DNA of 64,000 nt. Source: Pseudomonadota bacterium (GTDB lineage: Archaea > Thermoplasmatota > SW-10-69-26 > JACQPN01 > JAJPHT01). The position numbers were made by a program, and so were the translations under genes. The DNA is taken from the NCBI GenBank assembly GCA_021325135.1, contig JAJPHT010000007.1, positions 33,776-97,775 on the forward strand. Reading direction: 5' to 3'. Position 1 is the first letter of the stretch, and each line of letters opens with the position of its first letter. Shown here one piece after another: positions 8,938-36,070 of the stretch. The notes under the pieces were generated by a model, which worked only from the letters and a program-made list of their open reading frames with translations, searched no databases and was not told the DNA's origin.

Positions 8938-9837
<900 letters not shown>

Positions 9838-14622: not shown

Positions 14623-14874
14623 ATGAAGCTCCTCGCGACCGATATCCGCGGCAAGACCGTCATGTCCGACGACGGCACGATGCTGGGCCGCCTTCGCAAC
14701 GTCACCGCCAACGAGCGCACCGGCGAGCTCGCCGAGGTCCTCGTCGAGCCCGCCGACGACGTCGACCCCCGCCTCTTCAAGCGCGACAACCGCGGCTACG
14801 TCGTCTTCCCGTTCGAGAACGTCAAGTCGATCCGCGACGTGATCGTCGTCTCGACCTACCAGCCCGGGTTCTGA
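14623..14874 (+). CDS. PRC-barrel protein
   Basis: GKTVMSDDG.MLG.L.NV...TGEL...V.SIRDVIVV. Confidence 0.88.
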   Translation: MKLLATDIRGKTVMSDDGTMLGRLRNVTANERTGELAEVLVEPADDVDPRLFKRDNRGYVVFPFENVKSIRDVIVVSTYQPGF

Positions 14875-15033
14875 GCCCGCTGGATCGCCTTCTGCGCGAC
14901 GCGCCTCCGGGGCGCGCGCAGCGGGCCCCACGTCCGCGCAGCCCGGAGACGGAGCGAACCTCCGGATGACGCGGCGGGGCCCGCCTTCTTCCTTCTCCAG
15001 AAAAGCTATCCTGGGCGCAGCCGCTGGCCCGCC

Positions 15034-18092: not shown

Positions 18093-18830
18093 ATGCGCGT
18101 CGCGATCCTTTCCGACCTCCACGCCAACATGGAGGCGCTCACCGCCACGCTCAAGGACGTCGGCGAGCGGCGCACCGACGAGGTCTGGTGCCTCGGCGAC
18201 CTGGTGGGCTACGGCGGCGCGCCCCAGGCCGTCTTGGACGCCATCGAGGCGCGCACGCGCACCATCGTCAAGGGCAACCACGACCACGCCGTCGCCACCG
18301 GCGAGGTGGACGGCTTCAACCCCATGGCGGCATCGGCCGCGCGCCTGCACGCGCAGATGCTCACGCCCCCCGAGCGGGCCCGCCTCTACGCGCTGCCCAC
18401 CACGCTCACGCGCCACGTCGGCGCGGTCGAGGTGCTTCTCGCGCACGGCAGCCCCGACGACCCCATCCACGAGTACGTGAGGCCCGAGGACGCGCCCGAA
18501 GGGCAGCGGCGCTGGACCGGCCTCGCGGACGTCATCCTCCTGGGCCACACGCACCTGCCCTTCGCGGCGCTCCCTCGCGGCGGCGCGTGGAAGGCGGAGG
18601 GGTTCGCCGAGGGCCGGCCCGGAGCCCCCGAGGCCCCCCTCGTCGTGAACCCGGGCTCCGTGGGCCAGCCGCGCGACGGCGACTCCCGCGCCTCCTACGC
18701 CGTGCTGGACTTCGCGCGCCGCACCGTCGAGCTGCATCGCGTCGCCTACGACGTGGAGAGCGCCGCGCAGGCCATCCGCCGCGCGGGCCTCGACCACGCG
18801 CTCGCGCTGCGCCTCTTCCGCGGCCGGTGA
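18093..18830 (+). CDS. Metallophosphoesterase
   Basis: DLHAN, GDLVGYG, GNHD, GHTH, NPGSVGQPRDG. Confidence 0.93.
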   Translation: MRVAILSDLHANMEALTATLKDVGERRTDEVWCLGDLVGYGGAPQAVLDAIEARTRTIVKGNHDHAVATGEVDGFNPMAASAARLHAQMLTPPERARLYALPTTLTRHVGAVEVLLAHGSPDDPIHEYVRPEDAPEGQRRWTGLADVILLGHTHLPFAALPRGGAWKAEGFAEGRPGAPEAPLVVNPGSVGQPRDGDSRASYAVLDFARRTVELHRVAYDVESAAQAIRRAGLDHALALRLFRGR

Positions 18831-19426: not shown

Positions 19427-20116
19427 ATGCGCCTCTTCATGGTCCGCCACGGCGAGACCGACCACAACGTGCAGCGCCGCATCCAGGGGCCGCTCCTGGA
19501 CGACTCGCTCAACCCGCGCGGGCGCTCGCAGGCCAAGGCGCTGGAGGCGCGCTTCGCGGCGGAGCGCGCGAAGGGCCTGGAGATCGCGGCCGTCTACGCG
19601 AGCCCGCTGAAGCGCGCGTGGGAGACGGCGGAGGGAGTCGCGCGCGGCGCACACGCCAAGGAGCTTCGCCCCGCGCCGTGGCTCATCGAGTTCTCGTGGG
19701 GCGTCTACCTGGGCAAGACCGAGGAGGGCGAGACGCTGGAGGCCATGAAGGAGATGCACCGCCAGTGGACCGCGGGCCGCGTGGACCTGGCGGTGCCCGG
19801 CGGCGAGTCGCCGCGCCTCGCGTGGGAGCGCGCGAGCAAGGGGCTGTTCGCGGCGCTCGACGCGCACCGCGGGCAGACCGTCACGACGGTGGCGCACGGC
19901 CGCATCAACAAGATCCTCCTCGCGGGCCTGCTGCACCGCGACCTCGCCAGGATGGACGCCTTCGGGCAAGGCAACACGTCCGTCACGCTCCTGGAGCACG
20001 AGGACGACGCGCCGTGGAGCGAGGGCTGGCGCGCGGTCTACCTCAACGACAAGTCGCACCTGGCGGGCGTGGGCGAAGGCACGCAGTCCGTGGAGGGCGG
20101 CGGGCCGCTGGTCTAG
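19427..20116 (+). CDS. Histidine phosphatase family protein
   Basis: RHGET, SPL.RA.ETA, PGGES, VAHG. Confidence 0.93.
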   Translation: MRLFMVRHGETDHNVQRRIQGPLLDDSLNPRGRSQAKALEARFAAERAKGLEIAAVYASPLKRAWETAEGVARGAHAKELRPAPWLIEFSWGVYLGKTEEGETLEAMKEMHRQWTAGRVDLAVPGGESPRLAWERASKGLFAALDAHRGQTVTTVAHGRINKILLAGLLHRDLARMDAFGQGNTSVTLLEHEDDAPWSEGWRAVYLNDKSHLAGVGEGTQSVEGGGPLV

Positions 20117-20586
20117 GCGGCGCGCGCTGGACCAAGCAGCGACTCCACGTCGCCCAGCCGGAAGACGCTCCCCGCCACGAGCACCGCCCCCACGGGATAG
20201 AGCCACGACACGACCAGCGCGCGCAGCCCATAGGGCGCCGAGAAGAGCCAGCGCCCGTCAAGGAAGAACGCCAGGTCGAGCCACGCGAGGCCGAGCACGA
20301 GCAGCCACAGCAGGCGGCCCGAGACGGCGCGCACGCGCGGCTGCCGCCCCACGCGCACCATGACGACGCTGCCCGCCACGTCCAGCGCCAGCGTGAGGAC
20401 CAGCAGCGCCTCGCGCCACGCGACCCGGTACCCCAGGTCGAAGTCCGGCGGCGCGGCGCCCGGCCCCGCCACCGCGTCGCGCGCCTCCTGCTCACGCTCC
20501 TTCGCCAGCTCCTGGAGCGCCATGAGCGGGCCCGCCAGCATGGCAAGCCCGCAGAGCACGAGCACCACGACGTCCAGGCGGCGCAC
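20113..20586 (-). CDS. Membrane protein
   Basis: Four hydrophobic helices; GTG start inferred. Confidence 0.6.
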   Translation of the reverse strand: MRRLDVVVLVLCGLAMLAGPLMALQELAKEREQEARDAVAGPGAAPPDFDLGYRVAWREALLVLTLALDVAGSVVMVRVGRQPRVRAVSGRLLWLLVLGLAWLDLAFFLDGRWLFSAPYGLRALVVSWLYPVGAVLVAGSVFRLGDVESLLGPARAA

Positions 20587-20627: not shown

Positions 20628-20696
20628 GCGGGGGGTTCGGGGGGCGGAACCGGGGGCGGGCACTCGTGCCGGAACGACGCGGCACCCGTGCCGGAA
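20628..20696. other. attL: half REP arm, core and GGCAC-N2-GTGCC palindromes
   Basis: GCGGGGGGTTCGGGGGGCG then GGCACTCGTGCC (20659) and GGCACCCGTGCC (20681). Confidence 0.75.
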
Positions 20697-20793
20697 AGGT
20701 CGCCCGGTGGGTCCAACGGCCCCGGTTGACCTGTCGGCACGAGGCAGGGCCGCGCCCTTCGAGGGGTCCCGTGGAACCGACACGGTGACCCCG

Positions 20794-21249
20794 ATGGACG
20801 CGAAGACCGAGACGATCCAGACCCACCCCCCGACCCTGCTGCCGGTGAAGAGGAGCCGCGCGGCCTACCAGGCCGGGCGCAGGAAGCACAGCTACCCCCT
20901 GGCGTTCAAGGACGAGACGGAGAAGGCGCGCTTCGAGGCCATGGCGGCCCAGGCGGGGTACGTCAGCTTCAACGCCTATCTCCTCCAGCAGTTGAGGAAC
21001 GCCACGTCGGGCGCGATCTACCCGCCCGAGTATGTGGACGGGCTTCGGAAGGAGGTGGAGAAGCTTCGCGCCTGGTTGGACCAGGCGCGGGAGGAGGCGG
21101 GGGAGCTTCGGAAGGACGGGAAGCTCCTGGCCGCGGAGAAGGAGACCCTGGTGTTCCTCATCAATGCCACCAAGGACGGGAAGGACACTCTGGCCGACTT
21201 CGAGCGGATGCACGGCAAGAAGGCCCACCGCGCAGGGGTGCTCGCGTGA
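20794..21249 (+). CDS. RHH-like DNA-binding plus coiled-coil protein (DUF5805-like integrase partner)
   Basis: EKARFEAMAAQAGYVSFNAYL then coiled coil; GTGA overlap with the integrase start. Confidence 0.6.
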   Translation: MDAKTETIQTHPPTLLPVKRSRAAYQAGRRKHSYPLAFKDETEKARFEAMAAQAGYVSFNAYLLQQLRNATSGAIYPPEYVDGLRKEVEKLRAWLDQAREEAGELRKDGKLLAAEKETLVFLINATKDGKDTLADFERMHGKKAHRAGVLA

Positions 21250-22856
21250 TCGACCCGAGGAGCCGCCAGCGCGTCCAGACCGTGACGGTCAAGCCCACTC
21301 TGGACAAGGCCCTGAGCAACGCGGCCCTGGTGGAGATGTGGGAAAGCGCCTGGGGCGGGGACCGCATGGGCCGCAAGGTCTTCTCCCGCTACAAGCGCGT
21401 GGTCCTCGACGCCATCGGCTACTTCCGCCACCCGGACGGGCGCGAAATCCCGGCCCGCGAGTGGACCAAGGAAGGCGTGTGGGACTACCTCCAGTTTGTC
21501 GAGAAGAACTACTGCGCGGCCTTCAAGACCGTCACGTTCGACCGTCCGACACCTCAAGGCGCGTGCGACAAAGGCCAATGGACGGGGCTCATGGACGCCG
21601 CGGAGGCGCTTCAGGCGAAGTGCGCCGCGTGCCCCCTGTTCGTGCGCCCCGGCGTCGAGCACCGCGTCAACGGCCTAGCCCACTGGTTCCGGCACCTCTC
21701 GATCCTGGGGGCGATCCCGTTCAACATCATGCTGGAGGTCCGCGACGCCAGGAAGGGGCAGGAGGTCGCGGCGCCCGCGGGCGAGCGCAGGCGCAACCCC
21801 ACGCCCGACGAGATGAAGAAGCTCGTCAACGAGACGGCGCACCCCGCGCGCCGCGCGTTCTACGCGATCAGCGCGAAGTGCTACTACCGGCCCAACGAGA
21901 TGATGGCCCTCGACCGGTACGCGAGCTTCGGGCTCACGATGCCCAAGGACGTGCCCCTGCCGCCGGGGTTCGACACCGGCTTTCCCTCGCATCCCGAGGT
22001 CGCGCCCTTCGACCAGGGCGGCGACATGGTGTACGTGCCCCGCAAGGTCACGCCAGAGGGCGTCGAACTCAAGGACAAGCGCCGGGGGAACCGGTGGATG
22101 GTCGTGGACGCGGAACTGCGGCCCATCGTGGAGCAGTTGTTCGCCTGGTGGGAGGCCAACGTCGCGCGCGACGAGAAGGGCAGACCGTTGACGACGAAGC
22201 TTTGGCTCAACTACCGCGGCTTCGCCTTGGAGCAAGATGACCTGTATTATTCGTTCTTCTACGACGACTGCTTGCGCCTGGGCTTGATGACGGAGGCGGA
22301 CCAAAAGGACCCCTTGCGCGTGTGGACGGCTCACTGTCAGCGCCACTTCGCGGAACGTCTGTCAGTGGAGTTGAACTTCCCGGACATTTGGGCGCACCAC
22401 TTCCGGGGAGACAAGATCGGCAGCGCGCGAGGCAAATACTACCAGCCCGAGCCCCTTGCCGTGCGGAAGGCCTACCACGAGTGGATGCCACGCCTCGGAT
22501 TCCTGCCCTTGGCGGAGGCGCCCAAGGCGCGAGAGGCCAGCGAGGAGGAAGTGCATCGGATGGTCCTCCGATCCATGCTGATGCGCGTCACGAAGCGGCC
22601 CGGGCACGCGGGGGAGAGCCACGTCGTCCACCGCCTCCGCGTGGAAGGCACGGAGTGGATCGTCCCGGCGAAGGTGCTCAGCAGCGTGCTCTACGCGCTC
22701 CGCAAGGCGGGCATGGTCGAGCCGAGCGTGGAGAAGGCCGACGGGCAGGCGCGGGAGTACGTGCCCCGTGCGGTCCTCGTGGCCCTTTGTGAGCGGGCGT
22801 TGGGCCTCCTTGATGCGCAGAGTCCGGCCCAGGGGGCGTGCGTGATGGTGGCCTAG
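21246..22856 (+). CDS. Divergent tyrosine recombinase/integrase
   Basis: YYRPNE (R), KRRGNR (K), HCQRH, FRGD, KYY; resembles the haloarchaeal RGD-type integrases. Confidence 0.82.
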   Translation: MIDPRSRQRVQTVTVKPTLDKALSNAALVEMWESAWGGDRMGRKVFSRYKRVVLDAIGYFRHPDGREIPAREWTKEGVWDYLQFVEKNYCAAFKTVTFDRPTPQGACDKGQWTGLMDAAEALQAKCAACPLFVRPGVEHRVNGLAHWFRHLSILGAIPFNIMLEVRDARKGQEVAAPAGERRRNPTPDEMKKLVNETAHPARRAFYAISAKCYYRPNEMMALDRYASFGLTMPKDVPLPPGFDTGFPSHPEVAPFDQGGDMVYVPRKVTPEGVELKDKRRGNRWMVVDAELRPIVEQLFAWWEANVARDEKGRPLTTKLWLNYRGFALEQDDLYYSFFYDDCLRLGLMTEADQKDPLRVWTAHCQRHFAERLSVELNFPDIWAHHFRGDKIGSARGKYYQPEPLAVRKAYHEWMPRLGFLPLAEAPKAREASEEEVHRMVLRSMLMRVTKRPGHAGESHVVHRLRVEGTEWIVPAKVLSSVLYALRKAGMVEPSVEKADGQAREYVPRAVLVALCERALGLLDAQSPAQGACVMVA

Positions 22857-23171
22857 ATCGCCGAGGGTGGCAGGTGGCCGGGCCCTTGTGCGCGCTCTCC
22901 GGGTTGGGCCTAGGCGTTCATTCTGAAAATACGCCTCGGAGGCGCGCTTGCTTACGCCCGCAGAGCGGAGCCTAGGGGCTTGCCGCAGTTGGGGCAGGCT
23001 CCGTCCAGGCGGGGGGTGGTGTAGGCTCCGCAGGTGCGGCAGGTTCGGCGGGGTCGGGCGTGGGGTCCCGCGATGGGTCGGGCCGCGGGTGGGTCGGGCA
23101 CGACGCAGAGACCACGGGCGCGAGGATAAACGCCTCGGTTCCTCTGCCCGGGGTGCTCACGGTTCGTGGGC

Positions 23172-23450
23172 CTAGGAGGGGCGGCCCAGGAGCGATTGTG
23201 CGCGTTCCACGAATCGTTCCGCCTCTTGCATCTCGGCCTCCGCTTCAGTCAAGGCGGCCTCCACGTTCTGTCCAGTGCGCCAGGCGTCTTGGAGGGTGAA
23301 GACGGCGCGGGCGGCTTCCGCCACGGCGCGGGCGGCAGCATCGCACGCCTCCAGGTTCTGGGCGAGGCGGGCCATGCGGGCGGCGAGGTCGGCGCGCGTG
23401 ACGAGCTCTTCGGCGGCGGGGAGGCGTGCGTGGGCTCGCTCCGGGCTCAT
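23172..23450 (-). CDS. Small helical hypothetical protein
   Basis: Coiled-coil-like; ATGA coupling to the upstream mini-ORF. Confidence 0.55.
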   Translation of the reverse strand: MSPERAHARLPAAEELVTRADLAARMARLAQNLEACDAAARAVAEAARAVFTLQDAWRTGQNVEAALTEAEAEMQEAERFVERAQSLLGRPS

Positions 23451-23540
23451 CGCGCCTTCACGGCTCGTGAAGGTCTTAAAGCGGTGGAGGGCGCACGCGG
23501 GCTGCTGCAAGCCCTGGCGGGGCCCGGGCCGGCGGTGGAG

Positions 23541-23696
23541 TCAGCCATGTGCTGGCTGCTCCTCCGGTTCGTGGTCGAGCTTCGCGCGTTCGATTCCCTG
23601 CCAGTCGAGGTATCGAAGCGCGGCTTCGCGCGTCATGGTCTTGTGCACGAAGACCGCGCGCCTGAGGTGGCGCAGGATGGCGGCCTCGTCAGCCAA
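23541..23696 (-). CDS. Small hypothetical protein (51 aa)
   Basis: TTG start with AAGGAGG RBS; LADEAAILRHLRRAVFVHKTMTREAALRYLDWQG; not in the ORF track. Confidence 0.55.
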   Translation of the reverse strand: MADEAAILRHLRRAVFVHKTMTREAALRYLDWQGIERAKLDHEPEEQPAHG

Positions 23697-24024
23697 GGGC
23701 GCGGGCCTCCTTGCGCGGCGCAGAGGTCGAGGCGATGGCTGCGCGTTCGTTCGCGTAGGCGCGCAGCGCGCCCGCGATGCGGGGCGCTTCCTCGTCCAGC
23801 ACGTCCAAGGCGTGCAGGACGCGCGCCGCGTCGTCCGGGTCCGTGGGCCAGGGTGCGAGGCCTAAGAGGATGGGCAGCGGGTGGAGGGCGTTGCCGAAGC
23901 TGACGCGCGAGCGGCGCCGCGTCGCCATGAACTCGCGGGCCTCCAGCTGGAGGCCGAAGGCTTCGAGGGCTTCGCGAGAGTCCCCGCGAAGCCACTTGTG
24001 GTTCCGCTCATCCGCCACGAGCAC
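23689..24024 (-). CDS. Hypothetical protein
   Basis: Protein-like composition; overlaps the next small gene. Confidence 0.55.
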   Translation of the reverse strand: MLVADERNHKWLRGDSREALEAFGLQLEAREFMATRRRSRVSFGNALHPLPILLGLAPWPTDPDDAARVLHALDVLDEEAPRIAGALRAYANERAAIASTSAPRKEARALG

Positions 24025-24901
24025 ACCCCCCGGGCACCAAACGCAAGCCGGGTTGTGTCGTCGTGTGGATCATCGCGCGGAGGGCGAGGCGGGAGGGCGC
24101 GGGGCGGGGCATGTGGCTTTGAGTCTCGCGGGCTTCTTGGCGTTTTAGAAGGAAGGGAGGGAACGCGTCCCCCTTCCTCCCACCCTCCGGTTTCGTGGAG
24201 GGGTGGTCTTCAAGAGGCCGAGGCCGCGCCAGGCCGGCAATGTGGGTCGGATGGGGGGTGGGTTTTTCCCCACCCACCCATGGGTGCCGCGCGTGGTCCT
24301 CGTGCGGCACGCTGGCCGTGTGGTGCTCGTGCGCGTGCTCGTCGTCCTGGGCGCGGCGCGCGTCGTCGTGGCCGTGGGGTCGGCGGCGAGGGGGCAGGAG
24401 GGCGAGGAGGAGCAGGGCGAGGCCAAGGGCAGCCGCCAGCTTCGCCAAGGAGTCCGCGCTGGGCGCGGGCGGGATCGTGAGCATGAGGCTCGCCAGCGCG
24501 AAGCTGGCGGCCTTCTGCGGGATCGTGGCGAGCGTGGGGGGCGCGGCGGGGGACGCGGCCGTCGTCGCGGGCCTCGTGCTGCGCGTCGTCCTGGGCGTGG
24601 AGATCCTCGCGACGGGGACAGGGTCCGCGTCGGCAGGGGGCGCGAGGGTCGCCCGGAGCGCGCGGGAGGCGTCCGGGCGGGGCGTGGGCGCGCGCTCGTG
24701 CGTCGTCACGGCGCCCGGGTCTTGGGAGAGGTCGGGCGCGTGCAGCGTGGGCAGGAGTGCGGCGAGGATGGCGGGCGGGGGGTCGCGGGGGTTCCAGGCG
24801 GCGGGGGCGCGCATCGGAGCGGGGCTGCTGCGGGCTCCAGATTTTGAGGAATGAGGGTACGTCCCCAACGGCTCGCGTCGAGCCTGGGACGTGGCATCGG
24901 G

Positions 24902-25223
24902 TTCCTGGGATTCGCTCCACCGCGCGCTGTATGTCCGAAGTAATGCCCTCCAGTAGGGGGCATTACATAGGGACCTCCAGCGGCGGTGCGAGACTCCAGG
25001 GAATCGAGCCGGGTAGGGAGTCAAGGATGCGGGCCTACCCGGCTCTTGAGCCTCGTGCAGATCGTGGCGGTTGGGGAGGCTGCGTCCGCCTTGGTGGTGC
25101 ATTTCCTGGCGTCGGCTGCCTTGAAATCGCTCCACCGCCCGTTGCATTTCCGAAGTAGTATTCCTAGGCGGAATACTACATACGAATGCAACGAAGGCGG
25201 TGCGAGACATCAAGGCAAGACGC
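24902..25223. repeat. Two tandem copies of a conserved structured motif
   Basis: TCGCTCCACCGC..TCCGAAGTA..TACATA..GCGGTGCGAGAC at 24912-24994 and 25127-25208, with different but base-paired stems. Confidence 0.85.
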
Positions 25224-26330
25224 AGACAAGGAGTCAAGGATGAGGCCTTGTCCGCGTCCGAGGGAGGTGCCAACGCGCTTCGCGCCGGTCGCCAGATCGT
25301 GACGCGCAGGGCCTTCAGCGCGTGCAGGGCCGGGCGTGCGGTCGTGCAGATCGAGGCGAGGAGCGCGCGGGTGAGGGCCGCGGCGCTCTGGAGCGTGACG
25401 GTGAACTCCTCACGGGCGAGCCAGATGGCGAGCATCGCTCGCAAGGTCGCTGGCGAGGCCATGAAGGCGACGTGGCGTCGTTGCGTGGGCGCGCGTGGAG
25501 CTGGGCGCCGTCACGGTGACGGAACTCGGGGTGCGCGTGGTTGGCCTCGTTGTTCCGAGTCGTTGAAAAAATTCTGAGTTGAAATTCGAGTTGCAGGAAG
25601 GGCAGGGCACGATCCCCTTGGCCTGGTGATCTTGCGGGCAGGGGCGCCTCCTCGGGCCTTCCGATTGTTCTTCAGAATACACTACTGGCCTTCGTAAACT
25701 ACGGCGTAGTGTATTCCGGGAACAACCGGGTCCCGAGGGCTCCTCCCCGCCGATCCCCGCCAAGGATTTTCCTTGCCTGCTCAAAAGAGGTCAAGATAGG
25801 CGGCTTTTGAGAGCGGGCGACCCGTCGAGGCGAGGGCGGCGCGCTCTGCACACTGGAGGCCGCGCAGGGGGCCCACCGGCAACAGGCCCAAGAAGACGGG
25901 AAGGGCGGAGCCGAGGGCGAGGAGGAGTCGGAGCGCGGGCGCCTGGTGAACGTCCATGCGCCCGAGGTAGGCCGTGGTCCAATGTCAAGGGTTTCGGTGA
26001 ACCATTCCACCCGACCATGCCCCGGAGCCATGTCCGGGAGCATGGTCAAGGAGGGCGCGTCAGGGAGGCCCGAGGCCAGCGCTTCCACGCACGGTCCGCC
26101 GGGGACACCGAAGTGGCACATTCCATAGGCATTCCCTTTGGGAAGGGGAATGCCTCTGGAGGCGCTTCGTCTGTCCCGGCGGTGCGTGGGCGATTGGCGC
26201 CTCTTTCCAAGTCAAGATGTGGGCCGGAACTTCGGCGCGTGCCAAGCGCCCACGCAAGGCCAAGCGAAGAGGAGCCACCGGGTGGGGGGTGGGAATGCCC
26301 CTTTGATATCTGCCTGGGTGTCGTGGGTGG

Positions 26331-27545
26331 CTACGTGGGGGCAACGTCCAAGAAAGTCGGGCGCTGGTCGCGGTGGTCGGCGGTGGCGAGGACGAGGGCT
26401 TGCACCGCTTCGCGCAACACGGCGTCCCTGGCGTGCTCGCCGTTGAACTTGGTGAGCCAGGGGCCGGCGTAGGCGGCGTCGGCGGCCTCTTGGGCGGTGA
26501 GATTCCCCGCGGTCGCCCGGACCCATGCCTGCTCGATGACGCTATCGGGGGTGGGGGTGTAGTTGGCGAGGTATCCCTTGTGGATTTCCAGGACGACGGC
26601 CCGGGTGGAGTTGGCGCGGAAGGCGGCCTCCAGCGCGCCTTCCGTCCAGCCCCGGTCGAGGGTTTGGTTGATGACGTAGGGGAAGAAGTTGTGCGCGAGT
26701 CCGTAGAAGAAGGAGTCGTCGGCGCCTCCGCGCTCGTATGTCACGGTCTGGGAGTCCGCGCGGACGTGCTCGATGTAGGCCAGCCCGGCGGGTCCCACCG
26801 TGATGACCTGCGAGGTCTGATTTGCCGCGGCGTCCTCGGCGGCGCGCGCCTCGGAGAGCCAGAAATCCGCCGTGGTGAGCCGGCGATCGGCGCGGCCAAG
26901 GGCGGTACCATCCGTGGCGTATGACTTCCCGTCGTCGTTTGGGTACGGCTCGGGGCCCGGCTTGGCGCTGGAGATTTGCGCGGGCCAGTCCACGTCCAGG
27001 ACCGCTCGGGCCTCTTCGGCAGCCAATTCCGCCAAAGCTAGGGCGTTGATTGCCTGCACGCTATGAGCCTTCGGTCGAAATGCCGTGATGTTCGCCTCCA
27101 TGGCGGCCGTCGCGTTGCGCACCTCGCCGGGAGCGTTCTTCCATGTCTGAATTTGAGTCTCGCGGTCGGGGGATGCGAACCCACGCGAGAGGGCGAATGC
27201 ATCTTCGTAGGCAAGTTCCGTGTCGTCGATGGCGAGTGTGATATTGTGGTCTTGGGCGTAGAACTTGGCAAACGTTGTCCCTGCGTAATCCCGAGTCCAA
27301 GCAGCAGTTTCGCCGCTAACATTCATCGCCGATGCGTTGAGACGGTCGGTCGCCGTGACCTCCCAGTCGAACTGACGCTCCAGGAACGGGGAGGTCGCGT
27401 CGACGGTGTGCAAGGGAGACAGAGGCGTCGGGGCGGAGAACGTGGGAGTTGCCGGCCCACCCAGATGCCCTGTTTCCAAGATGAGCACGATGGCCAAGAG
27501 AATCCCGAGGAGGCCGAGAGCTTCGGGAGGTACACGTCGACGCAT
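26331..27545 (-). CDS. Membrane-anchored/secreted hypothetical protein
   Basis: N-terminal hydrophobic helix; GGAGG RBS; lies directly after the 27555-29858 gene. Confidence 0.75.
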   Translation of the reverse strand: MRRRVPPEALGLLGILLAIVLILETGHLGGPATPTFSAPTPLSPLHTVDATSPFLERQFDWEVTATDRLNASAMNVSGETAAWTRDYAGTTFAKFYAQDHNITLAIDDTELAYEDAFALSRGFASPDRETQIQTWKNAPGEVRNATAAMEANITAFRPKAHSVQAINALALAELAAEEARAVLDVDWPAQISSAKPGPEPYPNDDGKSYATDGTALGRADRRLTTADFWLSEARAAEDAAANQTSQVITVGPAGLAYIEHVRADSQTVTYERGGADDSFFYGLAHNFFPYVINQTLDRGWTEGALEAAFRANSTRAVVLEIHKGYLANYTPTPDSVIEQAWVRATAGNLTAQEAADAAYAGPWLTKFNGEHARDAVLREAVQALVLATADHRDQRPTFLDVAPT

Positions 27546-27554
27546 GCTAACCTC

Positions 27555-29858
27555 CTAGCCGTGCCTGATTTCGAGGGTCTTGGCGAGGTCGATCCAGTTC
27601 CACCACTCGTCGGTCACGGCATAGAGCCCGTTGAAGTTTTGCTCGATCGAGTGCAGGGCCTTGACCCCTCCGTGGAAGGTGCTTTGGCTCGTGCATGAGC
27701 CGCCGGTTCCGGGGATGGCGGCGCATCCCCATTGGACGTTGAGGTCCATGCCCTCGTCGTGGCCGTAGATGTCCGTCTTTTGGAAGTAGACGTAATCCTG
27801 AGCCTGCGGGGACGTGCTGACGTCGTTCTGGACGACGTAGTCGGAGCATGCCGTTCCTTGGCAGGAGAAGAGTTGGGCCACGGCGGGGAGCCACTGGCCG
27901 TCCGGCACGAGCGCCAGGAAGTTGATCAGGTCCTGAATGGAGGGCCCGATTGCGGGAGCTTGCGATGCGCTCGCGCCGTCCCGGCTGAAGTCCGCGATCC
28001 CGTTGGGCGTCGTCTTCCAGAACTGGCTGCTCTGGGTGATGTCTCCCCGGATGATGCCAATCTCCGGGTTCTGGGTCCGGTAACACATGACCTGGACCCA
28101 ACTGGAGTCGAGCGGATGGCACATCGAGACGCCCGACGACCAGGCGTTGTTGCTAGACACGCCGTGGCCGGTCGTCATGGTGTACGTCTGCTGGTTCCCA
28201 GTGAGGGCGTTCTTGCCATAGAACTCGTAGTCGAAGCTCCACGCGGCGGGCTGGTCGATCGAGCGGTGTCCCGCGCAGTCGACCACGCCGCGGTCCACGC
28301 GCGAGAACTTGAAGAGGCCCCGGTCGTAGGCCTGGAAGTCGGAGACGGTCCGCGTGTTGTTGTCGCCGCCGTCCGTGTACGAAACCGGCGAGGGCGAGTT
28401 GCTACCGCAGGGAATCCAGTTGCGCGTGAAGCAGGCCTTCACCGTGCCAGGCAGCGGGTCGCCGAAGGCGCTCGTGGTGCAGGAAATGCTGCCGGAGACG
28501 CCGTCGCGCCAGTAGAACCGTCCGTTCGCGCCGAAGGCCACGTCTCTCGTGCCGCTGAAGCTGCACGTCCCGCTCTCGTTGGCGCAGAAGGCGTACCCCA
28601 TGGGACCCGTGGGCAGGGCGCTGGTCTTGGTGAAACACGCCTTCACGATCCCGTAGAGCGGGTCGCCGAAGAGGTCGTTGTTGCAGTCGATCCCCAGGTT
28701 GACGCCGTTGAGGTAGGTGAACGTCCCTTGCGCTCCGTAGGCAACGTCGCTCTTGCCCGAATAGCTGCAACGGTTGTTCTCCGAGGCGCAGTAGGAGTAC
28801 CCGGGGGGACCTGCAATGCGCGTGTAACACGCCTTGCCGACCCCGTAGAGGGGATCGCCGAAGACTGTGTTCGTGCAGTCGGTCCCGCCCGAGAGCGTGA
28901 GGCTGTTGAACGTCCCGTCGGCGCCATACTTCACGTCCGCGGGCCCCGTGAAGGTGCAGTGCTGGGGCTCGGGCACGCAGTAGGTGAAGCCCGCGGGCTC
29001 CCCGCTTCCGTCGGTGGCCTTCGTGTAACAGGCGTTGGTCGTCCCGGAGTTGGGATCGCCGAACACGTCGTTGCGGCAGCTTACGAAGTGGTCCACGCTG
29101 TGCTTGTAGAGGAAAGACGAGCCGGCGCCGTAGGCCACGTCCTTGAGGCCCGTGAACGTGCAGTCCGCGCCCTGGTCCGCGCAGTATGTGTAGCCGCTGG
29201 GCCCCGTGGGCGTCATGGGCGACGCGGTGGTGCGGTTCGTCCCGTTCCCAGCCGCGTCGTTGACCACGATGGTGTCGTTCTGCGGGGCTCGGCTCGTCGC
29301 GGCCACCGAGGAGAGCACCGCGGCCCCGAGCCCGGTTCCTGCGGCGGACGGTGCGAGCGCCGCAGGAGGGGCCAGGTCAAGGGGCGTGATGGGGAACTCG
29401 GCGACCGTGGCGCCGCTGAGCGGGTCGACAAGCTGCCAGAGCCCGGCCTGGTCGGGAATGACGTGCCAGAAGAGGTAGTAGTGGTCCGGCGCGTTCGACG
29501 CCCGCGTGTCGGTGAACTCGACGCCCGTCCTGCCCACGATTTGTCCGAGAGGGTTCACGAGTTGGAGGCTCTGGCGGGCGGGCGCCCCGTAGACGGCGAA
29601 GCTCTGCGCCTCCGAGAGAGAGTAGCCCACGAACTGAGGGCGTTCGCCGCCGAGGATCATGGTGGCGATGTGCCCCGAGTAGTGAAGCCCATCCGGCGCG
29701 TCGGGCGCGGCGTCTCGCGCGGGCGCCCCTGAGGCGCCCGTGGCGGGCGCGGGCTCCGCCGCGAGGGCCAGCGTCGGGGCCAGGAGGAGAAGGACGCTGA
29801 CGAGCGCCAGACGGGTCGTTCGCGGGCGTGTGCTGGATCGCGTAGTTGGCTCTTGCAT
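27555..29858 (-). CDS. Secreted protein with four Cys-rich FGDP repeats
   Basis: Signal peptide; four copies of GY.YCA.E...C.F.G..DVAYGA.G.F........C.N..FGDP..G..KAC. Confidence 0.85.
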   Translation of the reverse strand: MQEPTTRSSTRPRTTRLALVSVLLLLAPTLALAAEPAPATGASGAPARDAAPDAPDGLHYSGHIATMILGGERPQFVGYSLSEAQSFAVYGAPARQSLQLVNPLGQIVGRTGVEFTDTRASNAPDHYYLFWHVIPDQAGLWQLVDPLSGATVAEFPITPLDLAPPAALAPSAAGTGLGAAVLSSVAATSRAPQNDTIVVNDAAGNGTNRTTASPMTPTGPSGYTYCADQGADCTFTGLKDVAYGAGSSFLYKHSVDHFVSCRNDVFGDPNSGTTNACYTKATDGSGEPAGFTYCVPEPQHCTFTGPADVKYGADGTFNSLTLSGGTDCTNTVFGDPLYGVGKACYTRIAGPPGYSYCASENNRCSYSGKSDVAYGAQGTFTYLNGVNLGIDCNNDLFGDPLYGIVKACFTKTSALPTGPMGYAFCANESGTCSFSGTRDVAFGANGRFYWRDGVSGSISCTTSAFGDPLPGTVKACFTRNWIPCGSNSPSPVSYTDGGDNNTRTVSDFQAYDRGLFKFSRVDRGVVDCAGHRSIDQPAAWSFDYEFYGKNALTGNQQTYTMTTGHGVSSNNAWSSGVSMCHPLDSSWVQVMCYRTQNPEIGIIRGDITQSSQFWKTTPNGIADFSRDGASASQAPAIGPSIQDLINFLALVPDGQWLPAVAQLFSCQGTACSDYVVQNDVSTSPQAQDYVYFQKTDIYGHDEGMDLNVQWGCAAIPGTGGSCTSQSTFHGGVKALHSIEQNFNGLYAVTDEWWNWIDLAKTLEIRHG

Positions 29859-30189
29859 GGTGTTCGCCTCGGTGGTGAAGGCGAGTCCGCACAAACGCCC
29901 CATTGCGCGACTCCCCCAATCTCATAACAGAATGGGGGAGAGAAAGGTTCCGGAGAATTGTTGTGAAACCCCTGTGAAGTTGCGCGGCAATGGTTAGCAT
30001 GCCGCAGGCGAGTTTGGGGCGTGGCCGAGGCGAACTTGAGGCTTCCCCTCGGCGTTGTTTCCCCCTCGCTGGGGCGGCATGAATTCGCGCGGCCCGGGAG
30101 AAGGCCGCGGGGATGGCGCGGTGGCCCCTAGGTGCGGCTGGCTCCTCAGGGCCTGCGGGTGGGGCACCTCCAGGGTGTTAGGAGGTCCG

Positions 30190-30792
30190 TCAAGATGGGG
30201 CCTCTGTGAGGGTGAGGTTGCCTTGGAGGTGGTAGGGTTGATCCAGGGTGGCAGAGGCGTAGGCGGGAGGGGACGCGAGGTTGGCCTTCTCGATGAGCAG
30301 GACGAGCCCGCTCTTGGGGTCGTGGGGCGGAATCGCGCATTGGAGATGGAGCGGGCTGGGCCCCTTGGCGGAAATCCCGAGGAAGTGCCAATGCTCTGTC
30401 CCGTCAGAATCGGTGGTTCGGTTGAGGATGCCCGCCACGAGCGTTTGGCTCGTGGTGGACGTGGCGGTCCAGGAGAAGGTCAGATCGGCCCAGGTGTAGT
30501 TGCCCGGCGGGAAGAACGTGGTCGAGTAGTATTCTGTGGACGGGTAGTTCGCGCAGGGGAGGTTGGAGCCCAGGTCGGGGCAGAAGCTTGCGCTCTGGGG
30601 CACGGTGCCGTCGTGCGTGAGGTTGAGGTTGCGCTGCACAGGTGTCGCGGCGCCCGCGGCGGGGCGGTCCAGGGCCAAGCTCGCGGGCGCACGGGCGGGC
30701 TTCACGGGCGGCGTGGCGGGCGGGGTGAGGCAGCCCGCCATGAGGAGGGCGACGAGGAGGGCACAGAGGCGCAGGGTTCGGGATGGGATCAT
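30190..30792 (-). CDS. Putative lipoprotein
   Basis: LCALLVALLMAGC lipobox. Confidence 0.7.
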   Translation of the reverse strand: MIPSRTLRLCALLVALLMAGCLTPPATPPVKPARAPASLALDRPAAGAATPVQRNLNLTHDGTVPQSASFCPDLGSNLPCANYPSTEYYSTTFFPPGNYTWADLTFSWTATSTTSQTLVAGILNRTTDSDGTEHWHFLGISAKGPSPLHLQCAIPPHDPKSGLVLLIEKANLASPPAYASATLDQPYHLQGNLTLTEAPS

Positions 30793-31134
30793 GGGGTGGG
30801 TTCTCCGGGGAGTGAGAGCACGCGAAGCGAGGCCCCGAGGAAGGTGGCCGGGCGCCCCCTTGGTCGTCGCCCGGTCCCCGAGCATGAATGGACTCGGGGT
30901 GGTTCGGGGCCTCGCTTCGCTTTGGGTCATGGGGAGCCTCCGCGCCGTTCGCGGCGGCGTTGCGCGCGCTCCAGGGGCGAGGAGCCCCGCGGGCCTGGGG
31001 GGAGGCGGGCGCGTCGGCCGGGCGGCGGGATCGCGCGCTGGAGGCGTTCGTGGCGCGGAGCGTGGGGCAGGCGGAGCTGGGGGTGGCGACGAGCTGCGCA
31101 ACGACCGAACCCCCACACCACGCTTCACCAACCA

Positions 31135-31164
31135 CCGCATATGCGGTTTCTTCCGTATATGCGG
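31135..31164. promoter_or_regulatory. Tandem palindromic operator
   Basis: CCGCATATGCGG-TTTCTT-CCGTATATGCGG between divergent genes, upstream of the wHTH gene. Confidence 0.6.
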
Positions 31165-31177
31165 CGATAGCCGTCCT

Positions 31178-31555
31178 ATGAGCAAAAGCGTTTCGGGTGC
31201 CTTGCGAAGCAGCGCGCGGCGGGGCCAAACCGTGGTGGACGTGGAGGATGTTCTCAGCAAGGCCGCTTACGTCAAGGCGATCCTCGTCCATCGCGAGCAG
31301 CACCCCGAGCCCATGAGTGGCGGAAACTTCGCGGAGCGGATGGACTACAACAAGGAGGATGCCGGCAAGCGCCGCCGCGAACTGGAGGCCTTGGGCGTCC
31401 TTGTCCTGTGGAACGAAGACCTGGGCGACAACCGCATCCCCACGCTTCTTTCCCGCCTCACGCCCGAAGGTGTGCGCATTGGGGACGCGCTTCTCCAAGC
31501 CAACGAGGAGGCCGCGAAGGCGCGCAAGCGCAAGGAGCGCGAGAAGCACCGCTAA
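31178..31555 (+). CDS. Winged-helix (MarR-like) regulator
   Basis: HTH-like FAERMDYNKEDAGKRRRELEALGV, wing region, LTPEG. Confidence 0.6.
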   Translation: MSKSVSGALRSSARRGQTVVDVEDVLSKAAYVKAILVHREQHPEPMSGGNFAERMDYNKEDAGKRRRELEALGVLVLWNEDLGDNRIPTLLSRLTPEGVRIGDALLQANEEAAKARKRKEREKHR

Positions 31556-33048
31556 TAGTCGAAGTCCCGCGGCCACCCAAGCGTGGCCTGGCGCGCGAGC
31601 GCCGCGCGCAACGGCTCCGCCACGGCGGGCCAGGCGCGCAGGGGCGCAAAGCGCGGCTCCGTCGCGATCCACGCCAACACGCGCGGGTCCAACTGGCTCT
31701 TGCCCAACGCGAGGACGACCCAGCGCGCCGCGTCGTCCACCTCGCCCAACTGGAGCGCGCAGTCGGCCGCCTTCATCTCCGCCTCCCCGTCCACGAGGCC
31801 CCGCGAGGCGAGCGCAAAGCAGTCCCGCGCCTCGGCAGGCGATCCCAGGGCCTTCAGGAGCAAGCCCTCCTCGAAGTGGTACGCGCCCGACGAGACGAGC
31901 GCCAACGCGCGGCGGATGTGCTTCAACGCCTCCGCCAAGCTGCCCTCCTCCCGCGCATCCTGCGCCAACGCGGCGTGCTGCGCCGCGCGCCGGACGCGCC
32001 GCGGGCGCGGATGCACGCGCGCCCGACGCCGCCCAAGGACCGCCACCGCGCCGCCGGAGGCCACGACGGCGCCCGCGACGGCCAGCCCGATCCAGGCGGG
32101 GAGGCCCGCGAGGGCGGGGCCCGCGACAGGCGCGGGCCGGGCCAAGAGCGAGGTGGCGCGCACGTCGCCTTCGACATGGAGCGCCGCGGCGCGGCCATCC
32201 GGCGTCGTGACCGTGCCCGCCAACGCGCCCGCAACGGTCGCCACCTCCCCTGGCTGGGCAACGTAGCGCGCGCCGGGCGTGTCCATCTCGCCGCCCGTGG
32301 GCACGAACGCGAGGCTGGAGGAGGTAAAGCTGGCCGAGTCGCGGGCGGCCAGTTGCAACGCGGGCGAAGCGTCCAGCGCGAAGCGGCCCACGTCCCACGA
32401 GAGGTACACCCACCGGAGCGTTTCCTGCGCGGGGCCCGTGGGCTCGGCCCCGGTGTCAAACTCCGTCGTGTTCTCCGCCGCCACGATGCGGACGCGCGCG
32501 CCCAAGACCTTCAACGCGCCCGCCCCGTCGAACAGCACGCTACCGGCACCGTCGATATCGAAGTGCGGGCCCGTCACTCGTGCGTAATAGAACGGTTGGT
32601 CGGGCGCGTCCGTGCCCGCCCGCCCGTTCGGGATCATCGTGAGCGTGTTCGGGTGCAGGTTGGCCGAGCCCGAGGGCGTCATCGTCATGCGGCCGGCCGC
32701 ATCAGGGTAGAGCCCCGTCCAACCCCCGCGCAAGCTGGTGAGGGTCACGCTTGCGTCGTGGACCGTGAAGCTGCGTTGCTTGAGGGGGCCGACCTGCGCG
32801 CTGGTGGGGGGCAAGGGTCCAACGCTGAAGGCTGCGTCCTGCTGTTCGTAGGAGGTCACGCGCAGCAGGGGTGCCGAGAGGTTCGCGGGGTCGTGGCTGT
32901 CGGTGTAAAGGGCCTGGGCCGAGAAACCGAGCGTGGCTCTCGCGGAGAACGAGAGGTCGCCCGTCGTGGAGAAGTCGCCTCGCGCGCTGCTCGCGCTGGC
33001 CAGCGGCGCCAGCATGATCCCAACCAAGAGCAGCCCCCACGCCCGCAT
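31552..33048 (-). CDS. Single-pass membrane protein with extracellular beta domain and cytoplasmic TPR region
   Basis: Signal peptide, TM helix then basic stop-transfer, TPR-like helices (A..H...AL, EA..CF..A). Confidence 0.7.
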   Translation of the reverse strand: MRAWGLLLVGIMLAPLASASSARGDFSTTGDLSFSARATLGFSAQALYTDSHDPANLSAPLLRVTSYEQQDAAFSVGPLPPTSAQVGPLKQRSFTVHDASVTLTSLRGGWTGLYPDAAGRMTMTPSGSANLHPNTLTMIPNGRAGTDAPDQPFYYARVTGPHFDIDGAGSVLFDGAGALKVLGARVRIVAAENTTEFDTGAEPTGPAQETLRWVYLSWDVGRFALDASPALQLAARDSASFTSSSLAFVPTGGEMDTPGARYVAQPGEVATVAGALAGTVTTPDGRAAALHVEGDVRATSLLARPAPVAGPALAGLPAWIGLAVAGAVVASGGAVAVLGRRRARVHPRPRRVRRAAQHAALAQDAREEGSLAEALKHIRRALALVSSGAYHFEEGLLLKALGSPAEARDCFALASRGLVDGEAEMKAADCALQLGEVDDAARWVVLALGKSQLDPRVLAWIATEPRFAPLRAWPAVAEPLRAALARQATLGWPRDFDY

Positions 33049-33189
33049 GCTGTCGCTTGCCGCAGCGGTGCCTAACATGAAACCCTTTCCGTGCTTCTCA
33101 TGGAGATTTCCTGTGAAAGCGCGGCGGTCCGCGCTAACCCTGGGAATATGCTTATCTCCGCTCCTCTGAGTTCCAGCCCGAGGCTTCCC

Positions 33190-33639
33190 ATGATTCGCCC
33201 CGCAGTTCTCTTCGCCGCCATGCTGGCGTTGGTCGCGCCCAGCGCCAACGGCCTGGGCGCCCAGCCCTACGCCCCCACGGCGGTCTCGGCCGCCCTCGCG
33301 CAGAACGGCGCCGAGTTCGTCGCCTGGGCGCCCGGCTCTGCCCTGCCCGACTCTTTCAACGTGTACGGTATCGCGCAGAACGGCGCCCTGACCCTCCTCT
33401 TGACAGGCGTGGAGCAGCCCTCGGCCGCCGTGCCCCCGGGTTTCTTCACCTACGGCGTGGCCGGCGTGAAGGGGGGCGTGGAAAGTCAGGTCGTGCTCCC
33501 GACGGACGCCTGCATCCATATCAATACCGACCCGCCCGGCGCCGGAATCACGGACTGCCCGAAGTCTGCCGAAGGCAAGACCCGCCTGGGCACAATGCTC
33601 CCCCTTCCGTCAGGGCTTACGCCGCGGACTCCAGCGTGA
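33190..33639 (+). CDS. Secreted protein, FN3-like
   Basis: Signal peptide; P..V.A......V.W......FNVYG...YGVAGV.GGVES. Confidence 0.65.
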   Translation: MIRPAVLFAAMLALVAPSANGLGAQPYAPTAVSAALAQNGAEFVAWAPGSALPDSFNVYGIAQNGALTLLLTGVEQPSAAVPPGFFTYGVAGVKGGVESQVVLPTDACIHINTDPPGAGITDCPKSAEGKTRLGTMLPLPSGLTPRTPA

Positions 33640-33645
33640 CGCCGA

Positions 33646-34465
33646 GGGCGCTGCCCCCGGACCCCTGACCAGATGCAGGCCGAGTGGCAGGCGGCGCGCG
33701 AGGCCTATTGGCCTTGAGTCTCGTCGTGGGCACCCAAAGACAGGGCGAGTGCGTCTAGTCCCCCTCTCGACCGTTCCACGTGCGTCCAAGTCGAGAGGAC
33801 TCCGGGCCCGACGACGGACGAGCCGACCCCGAGCGGGGCTCTGCCCAGCACCCCGCCGGGGCTCACGCCCCGGACCCCACCACGATGGCGAGGGGCGCTG
33901 CCCCTCGCGCTCCCCGCCCAGGCGCTGCCGCCCTGGGAACCCGGCGGAGTCAACCCTCTGTCAGGCCGGCGAGGCCCGATGGGAGATGGGCCGGCGGAGG
34001 GAGGCCCGCCCTCCTCCACACGACGCCCGCCCCACTCAACGAGGCCGCGCAGGCAGAGGGGGGCGCGCTTGGTGGGGCCCAGAGCGGGGCTCCCGTCCTC
34101 GGACCCGGGGCCGGAACCGGAGGGGGAGGAGCCCGCGAGGCGGCTCCCCCTTCGGGGTGGGAGTCCAGCGGGGGCGGAGCCCCCGCGGGTGCGAGGAGAC
34201 GACCGGGGGCAAGGGAGAGGACGGGGGAAGGGACCTGCCCCCGAAGAAGGGCGGCATTCACGCGCACCGCGCGCACGCGCGCCGCGCACGCGCACGCGAG
34301 AAGCACGCGGAGCCGCCCGAAGCGGGGGCAGGAGCCCCCGCACCCCCACCGCCAGGAGGCGGAGCCTCCCGAACCCTCCACCACGCAGGGACCGGAGGCC
34401 CCCGCTCTCCCCCACCACTCAGGGGGAGGGCGCTCGGCGCCCCTCCCCTCCGACCCCCCCCCCGC
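33646..34465. repeat. Array of degenerate GGGGC-N-GCCCC-N-ACCCC palindromes
   Basis: Units near 33646, 33835, 33858, 33892, 34170, 34324, 34355, 34388; non-coding. Confidence 0.7.
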
Positions 34466-34630
34466 CCCCGTTTTCTCTGCAAGGGTCCCAGCCGGGCGCG
34501 GATTGGCAGGGCGACCGCGCGGGGAACGGCCCGAGCCACACGAGAATGCCAAGATCTCCACGAGGAAAACGGCGGGTCGATGGAATTATCTAGGCAGGAA
34601 GCATACGGGGGGATAGCACGGGGCAACTCC

Positions 34631-34679
34631 CCGGCACTAGTGCCTTTTCCCGGCTCCGGGGGCGCAGCCCCCTGACGTC
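34631..34679. other. attR: GGCAC-N2-GTGCC palindrome, core and half REP arm
   Basis: CCGGCACTAGTGCC TTTT CCCGGCTCC GGGGGCG CAGCCCCCTGACGTC. Confidence 0.75.
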
Positions 34680-34685
34680 GTCTCG

Positions 34686-34838
34686 TCGTTCGGCCGCGCC
34701 GCAGCGCGGCCAAAATGGGGGGTTTCAGGGGAGCTCGCCCCCTGACGTGAAGGAGAAGTCCAGCAGACGACCGAGACGTCAGGGGGCTGCGCCCCCCGAA
34801 CCCCCCGCGGGTAGCGGCGCTGCGGCGCCGCCGAACGA
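34686..34838. repeat. REP-like palindromic dyad, copy 1
   Basis: Two inverted arms around a CCAGCAGACG spacer; homologous to 47351-47467. Confidence 0.85.
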
Positions 34839-34846
34839 TGGGGGCC

Positions 34847-36070
34847 TCAGAACAAACGGGCCTGCTTCTTCGGCGAGAACCCCACGATGGGCTCCAGGAC
34901 GGGGTCCTCGCGGAGCACCGCCTTGGTCTCGTCCAGGGGCACGCTCATCTGGATCTCCTTGGTGCGGCCGTAGCGCCCCTTGGAGATGACGCGCGCCTGG
35001 AGGATGCCCAGCATGTCCAGCTCCGAGATGAGGTCCGTCACGCGGCGCTGCGTGAGCACGTCCATGTGGGCGGCTTGGCAGAGCTCCCGGTAGGTGTCGT
35101 AGACCTCGCCGGTGGTGAGCCCCTTCGTGCCGTCCTCCTCTCCGAGGATGGTGGCGAGGAGCACGAGCTTGCTCTGCGTGGGCAGCGTGCGCACGACCTC
35201 GGTGACGCGGTCCAGCTCGATCTTGTTCTGCGCCTTGCGGACGTACTTCTCCGAGATGGTCTTCTGGCCCTCGCGCTCCGCCAGCTCGGCGGCGACGCGC
35301 AGCAGGTCCAGCGCGCGGCGGGCGTCGCCGTGCTCCTGGGCCGCCAGCGCGGCGCACAGGGGGATGACGCTGGCCTCCAGCGAGTCCTCCTTGAACGCGA
35401 CGGCGGCGCGCTGGCGCAGGATGTCCTGCAGCTGCACGGCGTCGTAGGGCGGGAAGATCACTTCCTCCTCGCCCAGGCTGCTCTTCACGCGCGGGTCGAG
35501 GAACTCGGTGAACTTCAGGTCGTTCGAGATGCCGATGACGCTGACCTTGGCGCGCTTCAGGTCGTCGTTGATGCGGCTCAGGTTGTAGAGCACGTCGTCG
35601 CCGGCCTTGAACACCAGCTTGTCGATCTCGTCGAGGACGATGATGCAGGCGCCGTCCTTCTCGTCGATCTTCTTCTTCAGCTTGTCATAGACTTCGTCGG
35701 TGGGCCAGCCCGTGAAGGGGATGCGGTCGTTCCAGTCCTCGATGAAGTGGTTGGCGATGTGCGTCAGCACGCGGTACTGCGTGTCGACCAGCTCGCAGTT
35801 GATGTAGATGAAGAAGACCGCGCGGTCCTTCTCCTGGCCCGTGCGCTGGAGCTCCTTGCCCACGAAGCGCGTCACGGCGGTCTTCCCGGTGCCCGTCTTG
35901 CCGTAGATGAACACGTTGCTGGGCGTCTCGCCGCGCAGCGCCGCGACCAGGATGGTCGCCAGCTGGTTGATCTGCGCCTGGCGGTGAGGCAGCTCTTCCG
36001 GCGTGTAGCTCGGGCGGAGCACCTCCTTGTTCCTGAACATTGGCTCCGATCGGAGCAGCGAATCGAACAA
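34847..36070 (-). CDS. cdc6: Orc1/Cdc6 replication initiator
   Basis: Y.PEELPHR, GKTGTGKT, LDEIDKL, F.PY, GDARRAL, C-terminal wHTH with SKGRYGRT; start uncertain. Confidence 0.97.
   Translation of the reverse strand: MFDSLLRSEPMFRNKEVLRPSYTPEELPHRQAQINQLATILVAALRGETPSNVFIYGKTGTGKTAVTRFVGKELQRTGQEKDRAVFFIYINCELVDTQYRVLTHIANHFIEDWNDRIPFTGWPTDEVYDKLKKKIDEKDGACIIVLDEIDKLVFKAGDDVLYNLSRINDDLKRAKVSVIGISNDLKFTEFLDPRVKSSLGEEEVIFPPYDAVQLQDILRQRAAVAFKEDSLEASVIPLCAALAAQEHGDARRALDLLRVAAELAEREGQKTISEKYVRKAQNKIELDRVTEVVRTLPTQSKLVLLATILGEEDGTKGLTTGEVYDTYRELCQAAHMDVLTQRRVTDLISELDMLGILQARVISKGRYGRTKEIQMSVPLDETKAVLREDPVLEPIVGFSPKKQARLF

Follow-up and report, generated by a model that had tools for sequence, protein, structure and literature searches.

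Can an archaeal integrative element with a tyrosine recombinase use a multicopy palindromic repeat as its chromosomal target? This question is raised by a 64,000-nucleotide stretch of DNA (the window; positions 33,776 to 97,775 of contig JAJPHT010000007.1, assembly GCA_021325135.1), in which an element of 14,018 bp, at 20646-34663, splits one arm of a repetitive extragenic palindromic (REP)-like repeat in a Thermoplasmatota genome. The window belongs to contig C45 of G000, a metagenome-assembled genome (MAG) of soil-metagenome source (3.77 Mb, 71% GC, 94% complete, 5.6% contamination), and the same-genus relatives compared with it, G001-G004 among them, are also Thermoplasmatota MAGs. An initial annotation of the window had proposed that the repeat serves this element as attB, and every sequence test run points to the repeat arm as the probable attachment site.

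Junctions and the split repeat arm

The host flanks 20628-20646 and 34665-34679, once joined, equal the reverse complement of the intact arm at 34775-34808 at 34 of 34 positions, and the element's ends are inverted repeats, with 22 of 28 positions shared between 20645-20672 and the reverse complement of 34631-34658; both agree with the initial annotation. The GGGGGCG duplication that it described is indeed present at both junctions, but the exchanged overlap is the 6-bp GGGGGC, the seventh G being shared by coincidence; this shorter overlap follows from the symmetry of the two ends and from a second element in G000, on contig C7. When the ends are rejoined, a complete three-arm repeat cluster is obtained, the outer arms of which pair over ~40 bp. 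The features at the two junctions are as follows.

20113-20586, minus strand: host gene at the left junction, its orthologues in G003 and G004 lying 85-130 bp away from the stop codon of cdc6
20628-20639, plus strand: left (host) half of the split repeat arm
20640-20645, plus strand: 6-bp overlap GGGGGC at the integrase-proximal junction, placed by end symmetry and by the identical hexamer at the C7 element
20646-20694, plus strand: left terminus, with a 16-bp arm, the motif ACTCGT (20662-20667) and two 14-bp near-palindrome copies (20659-20672 and 20681-20694)
34631-34657, minus strand: right terminus, an inverted repeat of the left, with ACTAGT at 34636-34641, 16 bp from the overlap
34658-34663, plus strand: 6-bp overlap GGGGGC at the distal junction
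34664-34835, plus strand: right half of the split arm and the remaining REP-like cluster (hairpin, second arm, inverted third arm at 34775-34808, hairpin)
34847-36070, minus strand: host cdc6/orc1 gene at the right junction (Pfam Cdc6_C, 6e-32; synteny)

The near-palindromes and motif of the left terminus are probably binding sites for the recombinase or an accessory protein.

The REP-like repeat

The arm is present in ~119 copies in G000, where the 34-mer is found intact in 4 exact copies and in 64 with up to 3 mismatches. A 27-nt arm pattern has 106 matches in G000, 9 in the closest relative and 0 in 59 other genomes. The 140 loose arm matches in G000 fall into 94 clusters with 35 inverted pairs, most clusters being single arms or inverted pairs, and by the gene calls made in this analysis 82 of 87 repeat clusters are intergenic and 5 lie between divergent genes. 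Each arm provides a quasi-symmetric site and is at the same time a hairpin, with the overlap as its 5' stem. Short, palindromic, multicopy and intergenic, with inverted pairs downstream of genes, these repeats resemble REPs and bacterial interspersed mosaic elements; they lack the GTAG/CGTC tetranucleotide and the associated REP-associated tyrosine transposase (RAYT) of true REPs, and we call them REP-like because no RAYT/Y1-type transposase (PF01797) was matched in the 94%-complete G000. No Rfam match of note was obtained.

The same arm also occurs in two 2.76-kb viral contigs (L131:2471-2497 and L132:251-277), near a CAGTATTAC stem-loop (CRESS-like), which suggests that the arms are connected with origins of single-stranded DNA or that GNA hairpins arose by convergence.

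A second element at the same base and a common end rule

Besides the window, G000 carries three further integrase homologues, on contigs C7, C39 and C46. The C7 integrase is 41% identical to that of the window, and its element, of 25,871 bp, splits another arm at the same base, in an orientation relative to its integrase opposite to that of the window element. Half-arms, which if common throughout the genome would have deprived the split of meaning, are rare: only two convincing orphan left halves were found among 169 loose matches, both at elements of the family, and the pattern half-arm + GGGGGC + 16 + ACYVG matches exactly two places in G000, namely the window and C7 elements. The identity of the overlap alone fails to explain targeting, because only 119 of the 7,436 GGGGGC hexamers (1.6%; 3e-5 per base) stand at that arm position. 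A GCGCGC core for C7 was considered and rejected, these bases being the outer arms of the host repeat, which is intact many times elsewhere.

One rule holds at either end of the elements of the window, C7 and C39: a 6-bp overlap is followed, after 16 bp, by an ACYRGT-like motif. The same spacing also locates the proximal ends in G001, G002, G003, L061 and L064. The hexamers at the two ends match in all three of these complete elements. BLAST searches for long att repeats were uninformative in this GC-rich DNA.

Empty sites in relatives

An empty site with an intact arm had been sought in relatives, and this expectation was borne out in part. The cdc6 gene and the orthologue of the 20113-20586 gene are adjacent in G003 and G004, 85 and 130 bp apart respectively, but different small hairpins lie between them and no intact identical arm is present. 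With a short direct repeat at both ends and an empty site in relatives, the window element shows two features of a site-specific integrative element. Other empty sites are seen for C39, contiguous in G001 and G002, and for the C7 neighbourhood in G002 and G003. In G002 (L038:7486-8900) the site downstream of cdc6 is occupied by an unrelated insert of 1.3 kb, which has one NUDIX-like gene and one membrane gene; this place may be an insertion hotspot. A contig in which 20642 is joined to 34685 was considered as a rejoined site and set aside as no evidence, since its depth is that of a single copy and another repeat copy explains it equally well. Three mine-metagenome runs contained short near-identical pieces of host and element, without the junction, and were not used as evidence.

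A divergent tyrosine recombinase and its RHH-like partner

Two overlapping genes lie just inside the left end.

20794-21249, plus strand: ribbon-helix-helix (RHH)-like/coiled-coil protein, 151 amino acids, overlapping the integrase start
21246-22856, plus strand: divergent tyrosine recombinase, 536 amino acids, with R215, E218, K278, H363-x-x-R366, R387 (RGD) and Y398

The open reading frame (ORF) at 21246-22856 has no Pfam or PHROG integrase match, and a PDB sequence search with it gave none; nevertheless, the initial assignment of a tyrosine recombinase to this place is upheld by fold and conserved catalytic residues. The structural model (predicted local distance difference test score, pLDDT, 86) is matched by Foldseek to XerA, Cre, lambda Int and Tn1549 Int with probability 1.0 (best E 1e-5), all 50 matches listed being tyrosine recombinases of the lambda-Int/Cre/Xer fold, and a profile search reaches ordinary PF00589 proteins. 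In an alignment of 32 homologues the R, E, K, HxxR, RGD and Y residues are conserved together with four cysteines (C90, C107, C126 and C129), which are invariant; R215, E218, K278, R366 and Y398 are also invariant, H363 is conserved in at least 90%, and the H/W position is occupied by the invariant R387, so that the catalytic set of tyrosine recombinases (R, E/D, K, HxxR, H/W, Y) is complete with arginine at H/W. The protein also has a C-terminal extension of ~130 amino acids.

The family is small (40 near-length homologues), has no relative in viral contigs, is restricted to Thermoplasmatota and is defined by an RHH gene coupled to the divergent recombinase, the RHH-like gene preceding the integrase in every family locus with upstream DNA available. 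The RHH-like protein gives weak NikA/MatP-RHH matches and is modelled as a strand-like segment, two helices and a long helix; it is probably an accessory or directionality factor.

Targets across the family

The boundaries of homologous elements fall at the repeat in some lineages but not in all: C7 uses the identical base and sister species use repeats of their own, while other clades insert elsewhere. In G003 the repeat is a different one, and 4 of its 19 distinct copies have the motif at +16 (the background in G000 is 0.13% per position); integrase loci account for two of the four element ends in that repeat, and an identical end sequence is found after two separate repeat copies whose host flanks differ. 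The many landing sites initially attributed to the window element are thus seen for this sister lineage in G003 and only there, not for the window integrase. A third repeat type, the CACTY-CGTGCC repeat module, is split by both G001:C105 and G003:C148, and G003:C42 lies just beyond a related arm.

The 30.3-kb C39 element (G000 C39:17722-48041; L170, L171) is bounded by an 11-bp direct repeat that corresponds to a 17-copy motif found ~40 bp ahead of start codons, perhaps a promoter element peculiar to the lineage; the same motif serves G002:C22 and L061. The C39 element carries Prim-Pol, ArdC and a Rep-like ORF, and the C7 element an ATPase-like ORF and genes for large membrane proteins. Another, well-supported clade sits at tRNA T-arms, where tRNA-Pro or tRNA-Glu is broken at the T-loop and a different intact tRNA with the same anticodon lies 6-9 kb onward.

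L069: split at ~9360-9420; intact tRNA at 16872-16945
L071: split at ~9050-9105; intact tRNA at 14807-14880
L072: split at ~9390-9445; intact tRNA at 18179-18253, minus strand

Judged from the near ends, this clade looks like a case of tRNA-dependent lysogeny in archaea. Target assignment covers the family loci other than L059, L062, L065 and C46. Repeat use thus recurs, at least three species and three repeat types being involved, but it characterizes sub-lineages: a promoter-like motif, tRNA T-arms or a coding sequence serve as targets in other clades, and the family is not dedicated to REP-like repeats.

The C46 paralogue (L010) lies at the start of a lower-GC tract that runs from ~156400 of G000 C46 toward position 1, over at least 155 kb to the contig end, and encodes very large low-complexity secreted proteins; its far end was not found. 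At G001:C17 25352-26265 (L175-L177), tandem fragments downstream of the seryl-tRNA synthetase gene repeat its 3' end.

Cargo and nature of the window element

The remainder of the element consists of the following.

23172-24024, minus strand: three small ORFs of unknown function
24892-26230, no strand assigned: non-coding tract with long hairpins and four GTCAAG(G)AT stem-loops (25019, 25232, 25789 and 26210)
26331-33639, no strand assigned: cargo ORFs for a 220-aa (amino-acid), a 701-aa Cys-repeat, a 183-aa lipoprotein-like, a 107-aa helix-turn-helix-like, a 487-aa transmembrane/tetratricopeptide-repeat and a 139-aa protein

The cargo is mostly made of secreted or membrane proteins without family matches. 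No Rep, capsid, packaging or conjugation genes were detected in the element by Pfam and PHROG, nor were pleolipovirus-like provirus markers (Rep, spike, packaging NTPase) found in it; lacking detectable replication, virion or transfer genes, it is probably non-autonomous or degenerate. Part of the hairpin tract is 84% identical to DNA directly upstream of the Rep-like gene of C39, and its GTCAAG(G)AT stem-loops, which we take to resemble rolling-circle nick sites, also occur in C39, L041 and L065; the tract may hold the remnants of a rolling-circle origin. A role as RNA guide is unsupported, the tract motif being absent from C7 and without a target-specific pattern, and an ORF at 24008-24814 is probably spurious.

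The 701-aa protein (27555-29660) has four cysteine-rich repeats of ~65 amino acids and no family match. The segment 34122-34478, rich in small hairpins, is 90% identical to G000 C26:11-363, where another island, bearing a different integrase and an RHH-like gene, begins.

Proposed mechanism and alternative explanations

We consider it likely that the element integrates by conservative, overlap-matched recombination of attP with a host repeat arm, with many equivalent, gene-sparing sites to choose from. A circular form would carry attP, the two inverted ends placed around the 6-bp overlap, and the integrase, presumably reading the repeat directly, would catalyse conservative exchange with a host site offering the same 6-bp overlap between degenerate half-sites. 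For the window and C7 elements that site would be the GGGGGC stem of the arm, and since its ~119 copies are nearly always between genes, many equivalent and presumably neutral sites would be available. The family would readily switch among recurrent, roughly symmetric host motifs, be they repeat families, a promoter-like motif, tRNA T-arms or, occasionally, a coding sequence. Such targeting would explain the presence of four such elements in one genome and predicts repeat-to-repeat rearrangements.

Several observations weigh against this proposal. Neither an attP circle nor an empty attB was seen for the G000 strain, the contigs of four runs giving no attP joint, although contigs cannot show absence. 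No G000 integrase is seen at more than one site. Two strains could account for the end found at two sites in G003, a metagenome assembly, and L052, with the end sequence most like that of the window, lies in a protein-coding gene that reads as a flavin-reductase. The free tree does not place the integrases of the window and C7 as sisters, yet one clade for them is not rejected (approximately unbiased test, p=0.14), so that shared ancestry and convergence are inseparable.

An improbable alternative is a low, Tn916-like specificity, by which repeats are entered as accessible, bendable or hairpin-extruding DNA and the matching hexamers are carried from a previous site. The diversity of family targets, a coding sequence included, the weak half-site conservation, the sharing of one site by distant integrases and the fact that the highest template-modelling scores are to Tn1549 Int (0.61 by target) are all in keeping with it. 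Tn916-type elements, however, usually have unlike coupling sequences at their ends, whereas the hexamers are identical at both ends of all three complete elements; two independent elements entered at the same base; and close relatives share a target (C39 with G002 and L061; the G003 clade). Chance or an assembly artefact, a repeat-induced misjoin or a random insertion that happened to split an arm, is very improbable and largely refuted: repeats do break assemblies and G000 is a MAG with 5.6% contamination, but an independent assembly of the source run yielded one 5,956-bp contig across the left junction with zero differences, the C7 junction is present in a separate 285-kb contig, the empty sites are syntenic and the same base was split twice.

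A further explanation, unlikely in our view but compatible with repeat targeting, reverses the relationship, the repeats being non-autonomous mini-elements or end relics spread by the integrase family, with elements landing in old att sites. In G001, 4 loci have a ~110-bp arm-containing module between CGTGCC/CGTGAC direct repeats, and clusters alike in other respects lack it. The module finishes with ACCAGT + 16(17) + CGTGCC, the arrangement of element ends, and its site is also used by full elements; one G003 palindrome has two such ends, and the failure to find a Y1/RAYT transposase in G000 fits as well. On the other hand, the G000 clusters have ragged borders without flanking direct repeats, no ACYRGT motif lies within 120 bp of any of 120 G000 arms, and the G001 module carries the signature at a single end and may have travelled within a larger composite. 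Comparison of L101, L105, L109 and L113 with L128 and L129 (G001) shows clusters that look modular, delimited by CACTY-CGTGMC, with one module precisely present or absent and an element-like end. It is a speculative extension, to which we give little credence, that the family both targets and builds the transposase-free palindromic repeats of the genus, the modules being mini-elements inserted successively, cassette-like, at the same 6-bp overlap; if so, elements would seed their own landing sites.

Comparison with known systems

Insertion sequences (IS) that target REPs, namely ISPpu9, ISPpu10, ISPa11, ISRm19, IS621, ISPsy8 and ISRm22, split the REP at a fixed position (PMC1525189). As with the window element, rejoining restores the repeat and many intergenic sites are on offer, but those are small bacterial IS with IS110/IS3/IS4 transposases, while here elements of 14-26 kb with archaeal cargo have a tyrosine recombinase, and the fold of the window integrase is not that of DEDD/DDE transposases. 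The recombinase of the Neisseria filamentous prophage Nf1/MDA is Piv/IS110-like and not of the tyrosine type. This prophage, which uses dRS3 repeats with ~300 intergenic copies (PMC3898611), is likewise a larger element with a multicopy intergenic repeat as chromosomal target; it is, however, a bacterial inovirus.

Archaeal tyrosine integrases are described with tRNA genes, single intergenic sites and coding genes as their only targets (PMC8371274), those of the SSV, pNOB8, pTN3 and SNJ2 types using tRNA genes or single intra- or intergenic sites, mostly with 14-50 bp of identity (PMC8371274, PMC5861418). The present family shares with them tyrosine chemistry, the Arg at His/Trp-III of SSV1, pNOB8 and pTN3, and, with SNJ2, a small co-transcribed accessory gene; it differs in its 6-bp overlap (11 bp at C39), multicopy targets, intact gene, HxxR, Cys4 insert and C-terminal extension. 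Unlike the SSV type (att inside int, KxxR), the window integrase is an intact 536-aa ORF ~600 bp from the end; it has HxxR in place of the YxxR of the tRNA-targeting pNOB8 type, with no tRNA in the window; and E218 and R387 separate it from the SNJ2 type, in which Glu/Asp-I is changed to Gly/Ala and His/Trp-III to Ala/Val and the target is a tRNA. Tn916/Tn1549 (PDB 6EMY-6EN2) likewise have an accessory protein, many targets and inverted ends that flank a crossover region of ~6 bp, but here the overlaps match at both ends (3/3) instead of being unlike coupling sequences, the targets are GC-rich repeats, and neither a conjugation module (by Pfam and PHROG) nor an arm-binding domain is detected. 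The likeness to tRNA-dependent lysogeny (PMC10865867), a broken tRNA with an intact tRNA of the same anticodon, concerns only the sister clade of L069, L071 and L072 and excludes the window element.

Standard pipelines would miss this family, because its integrase escapes Pfam detection, the core in common is 6 bp long, and multicopy cores are discarded by at least one att-mapping tool (PMC12884075). By keeping one end architecture while switching among repeats, a promoter-like motif and tRNA arms, the family offers a natural series on target change, and a multi-site integrase with a 6-bp overlap could serve as a tool. As the initial annotation had supposed, no report was found in the open literature of a tyrosine integrase or an archaeal element using such repeats; precedents are known for transposases, and what is new is a family of tyrosine integrases for which multicopy repeats are a recurrent target, a combination apparently undescribed.

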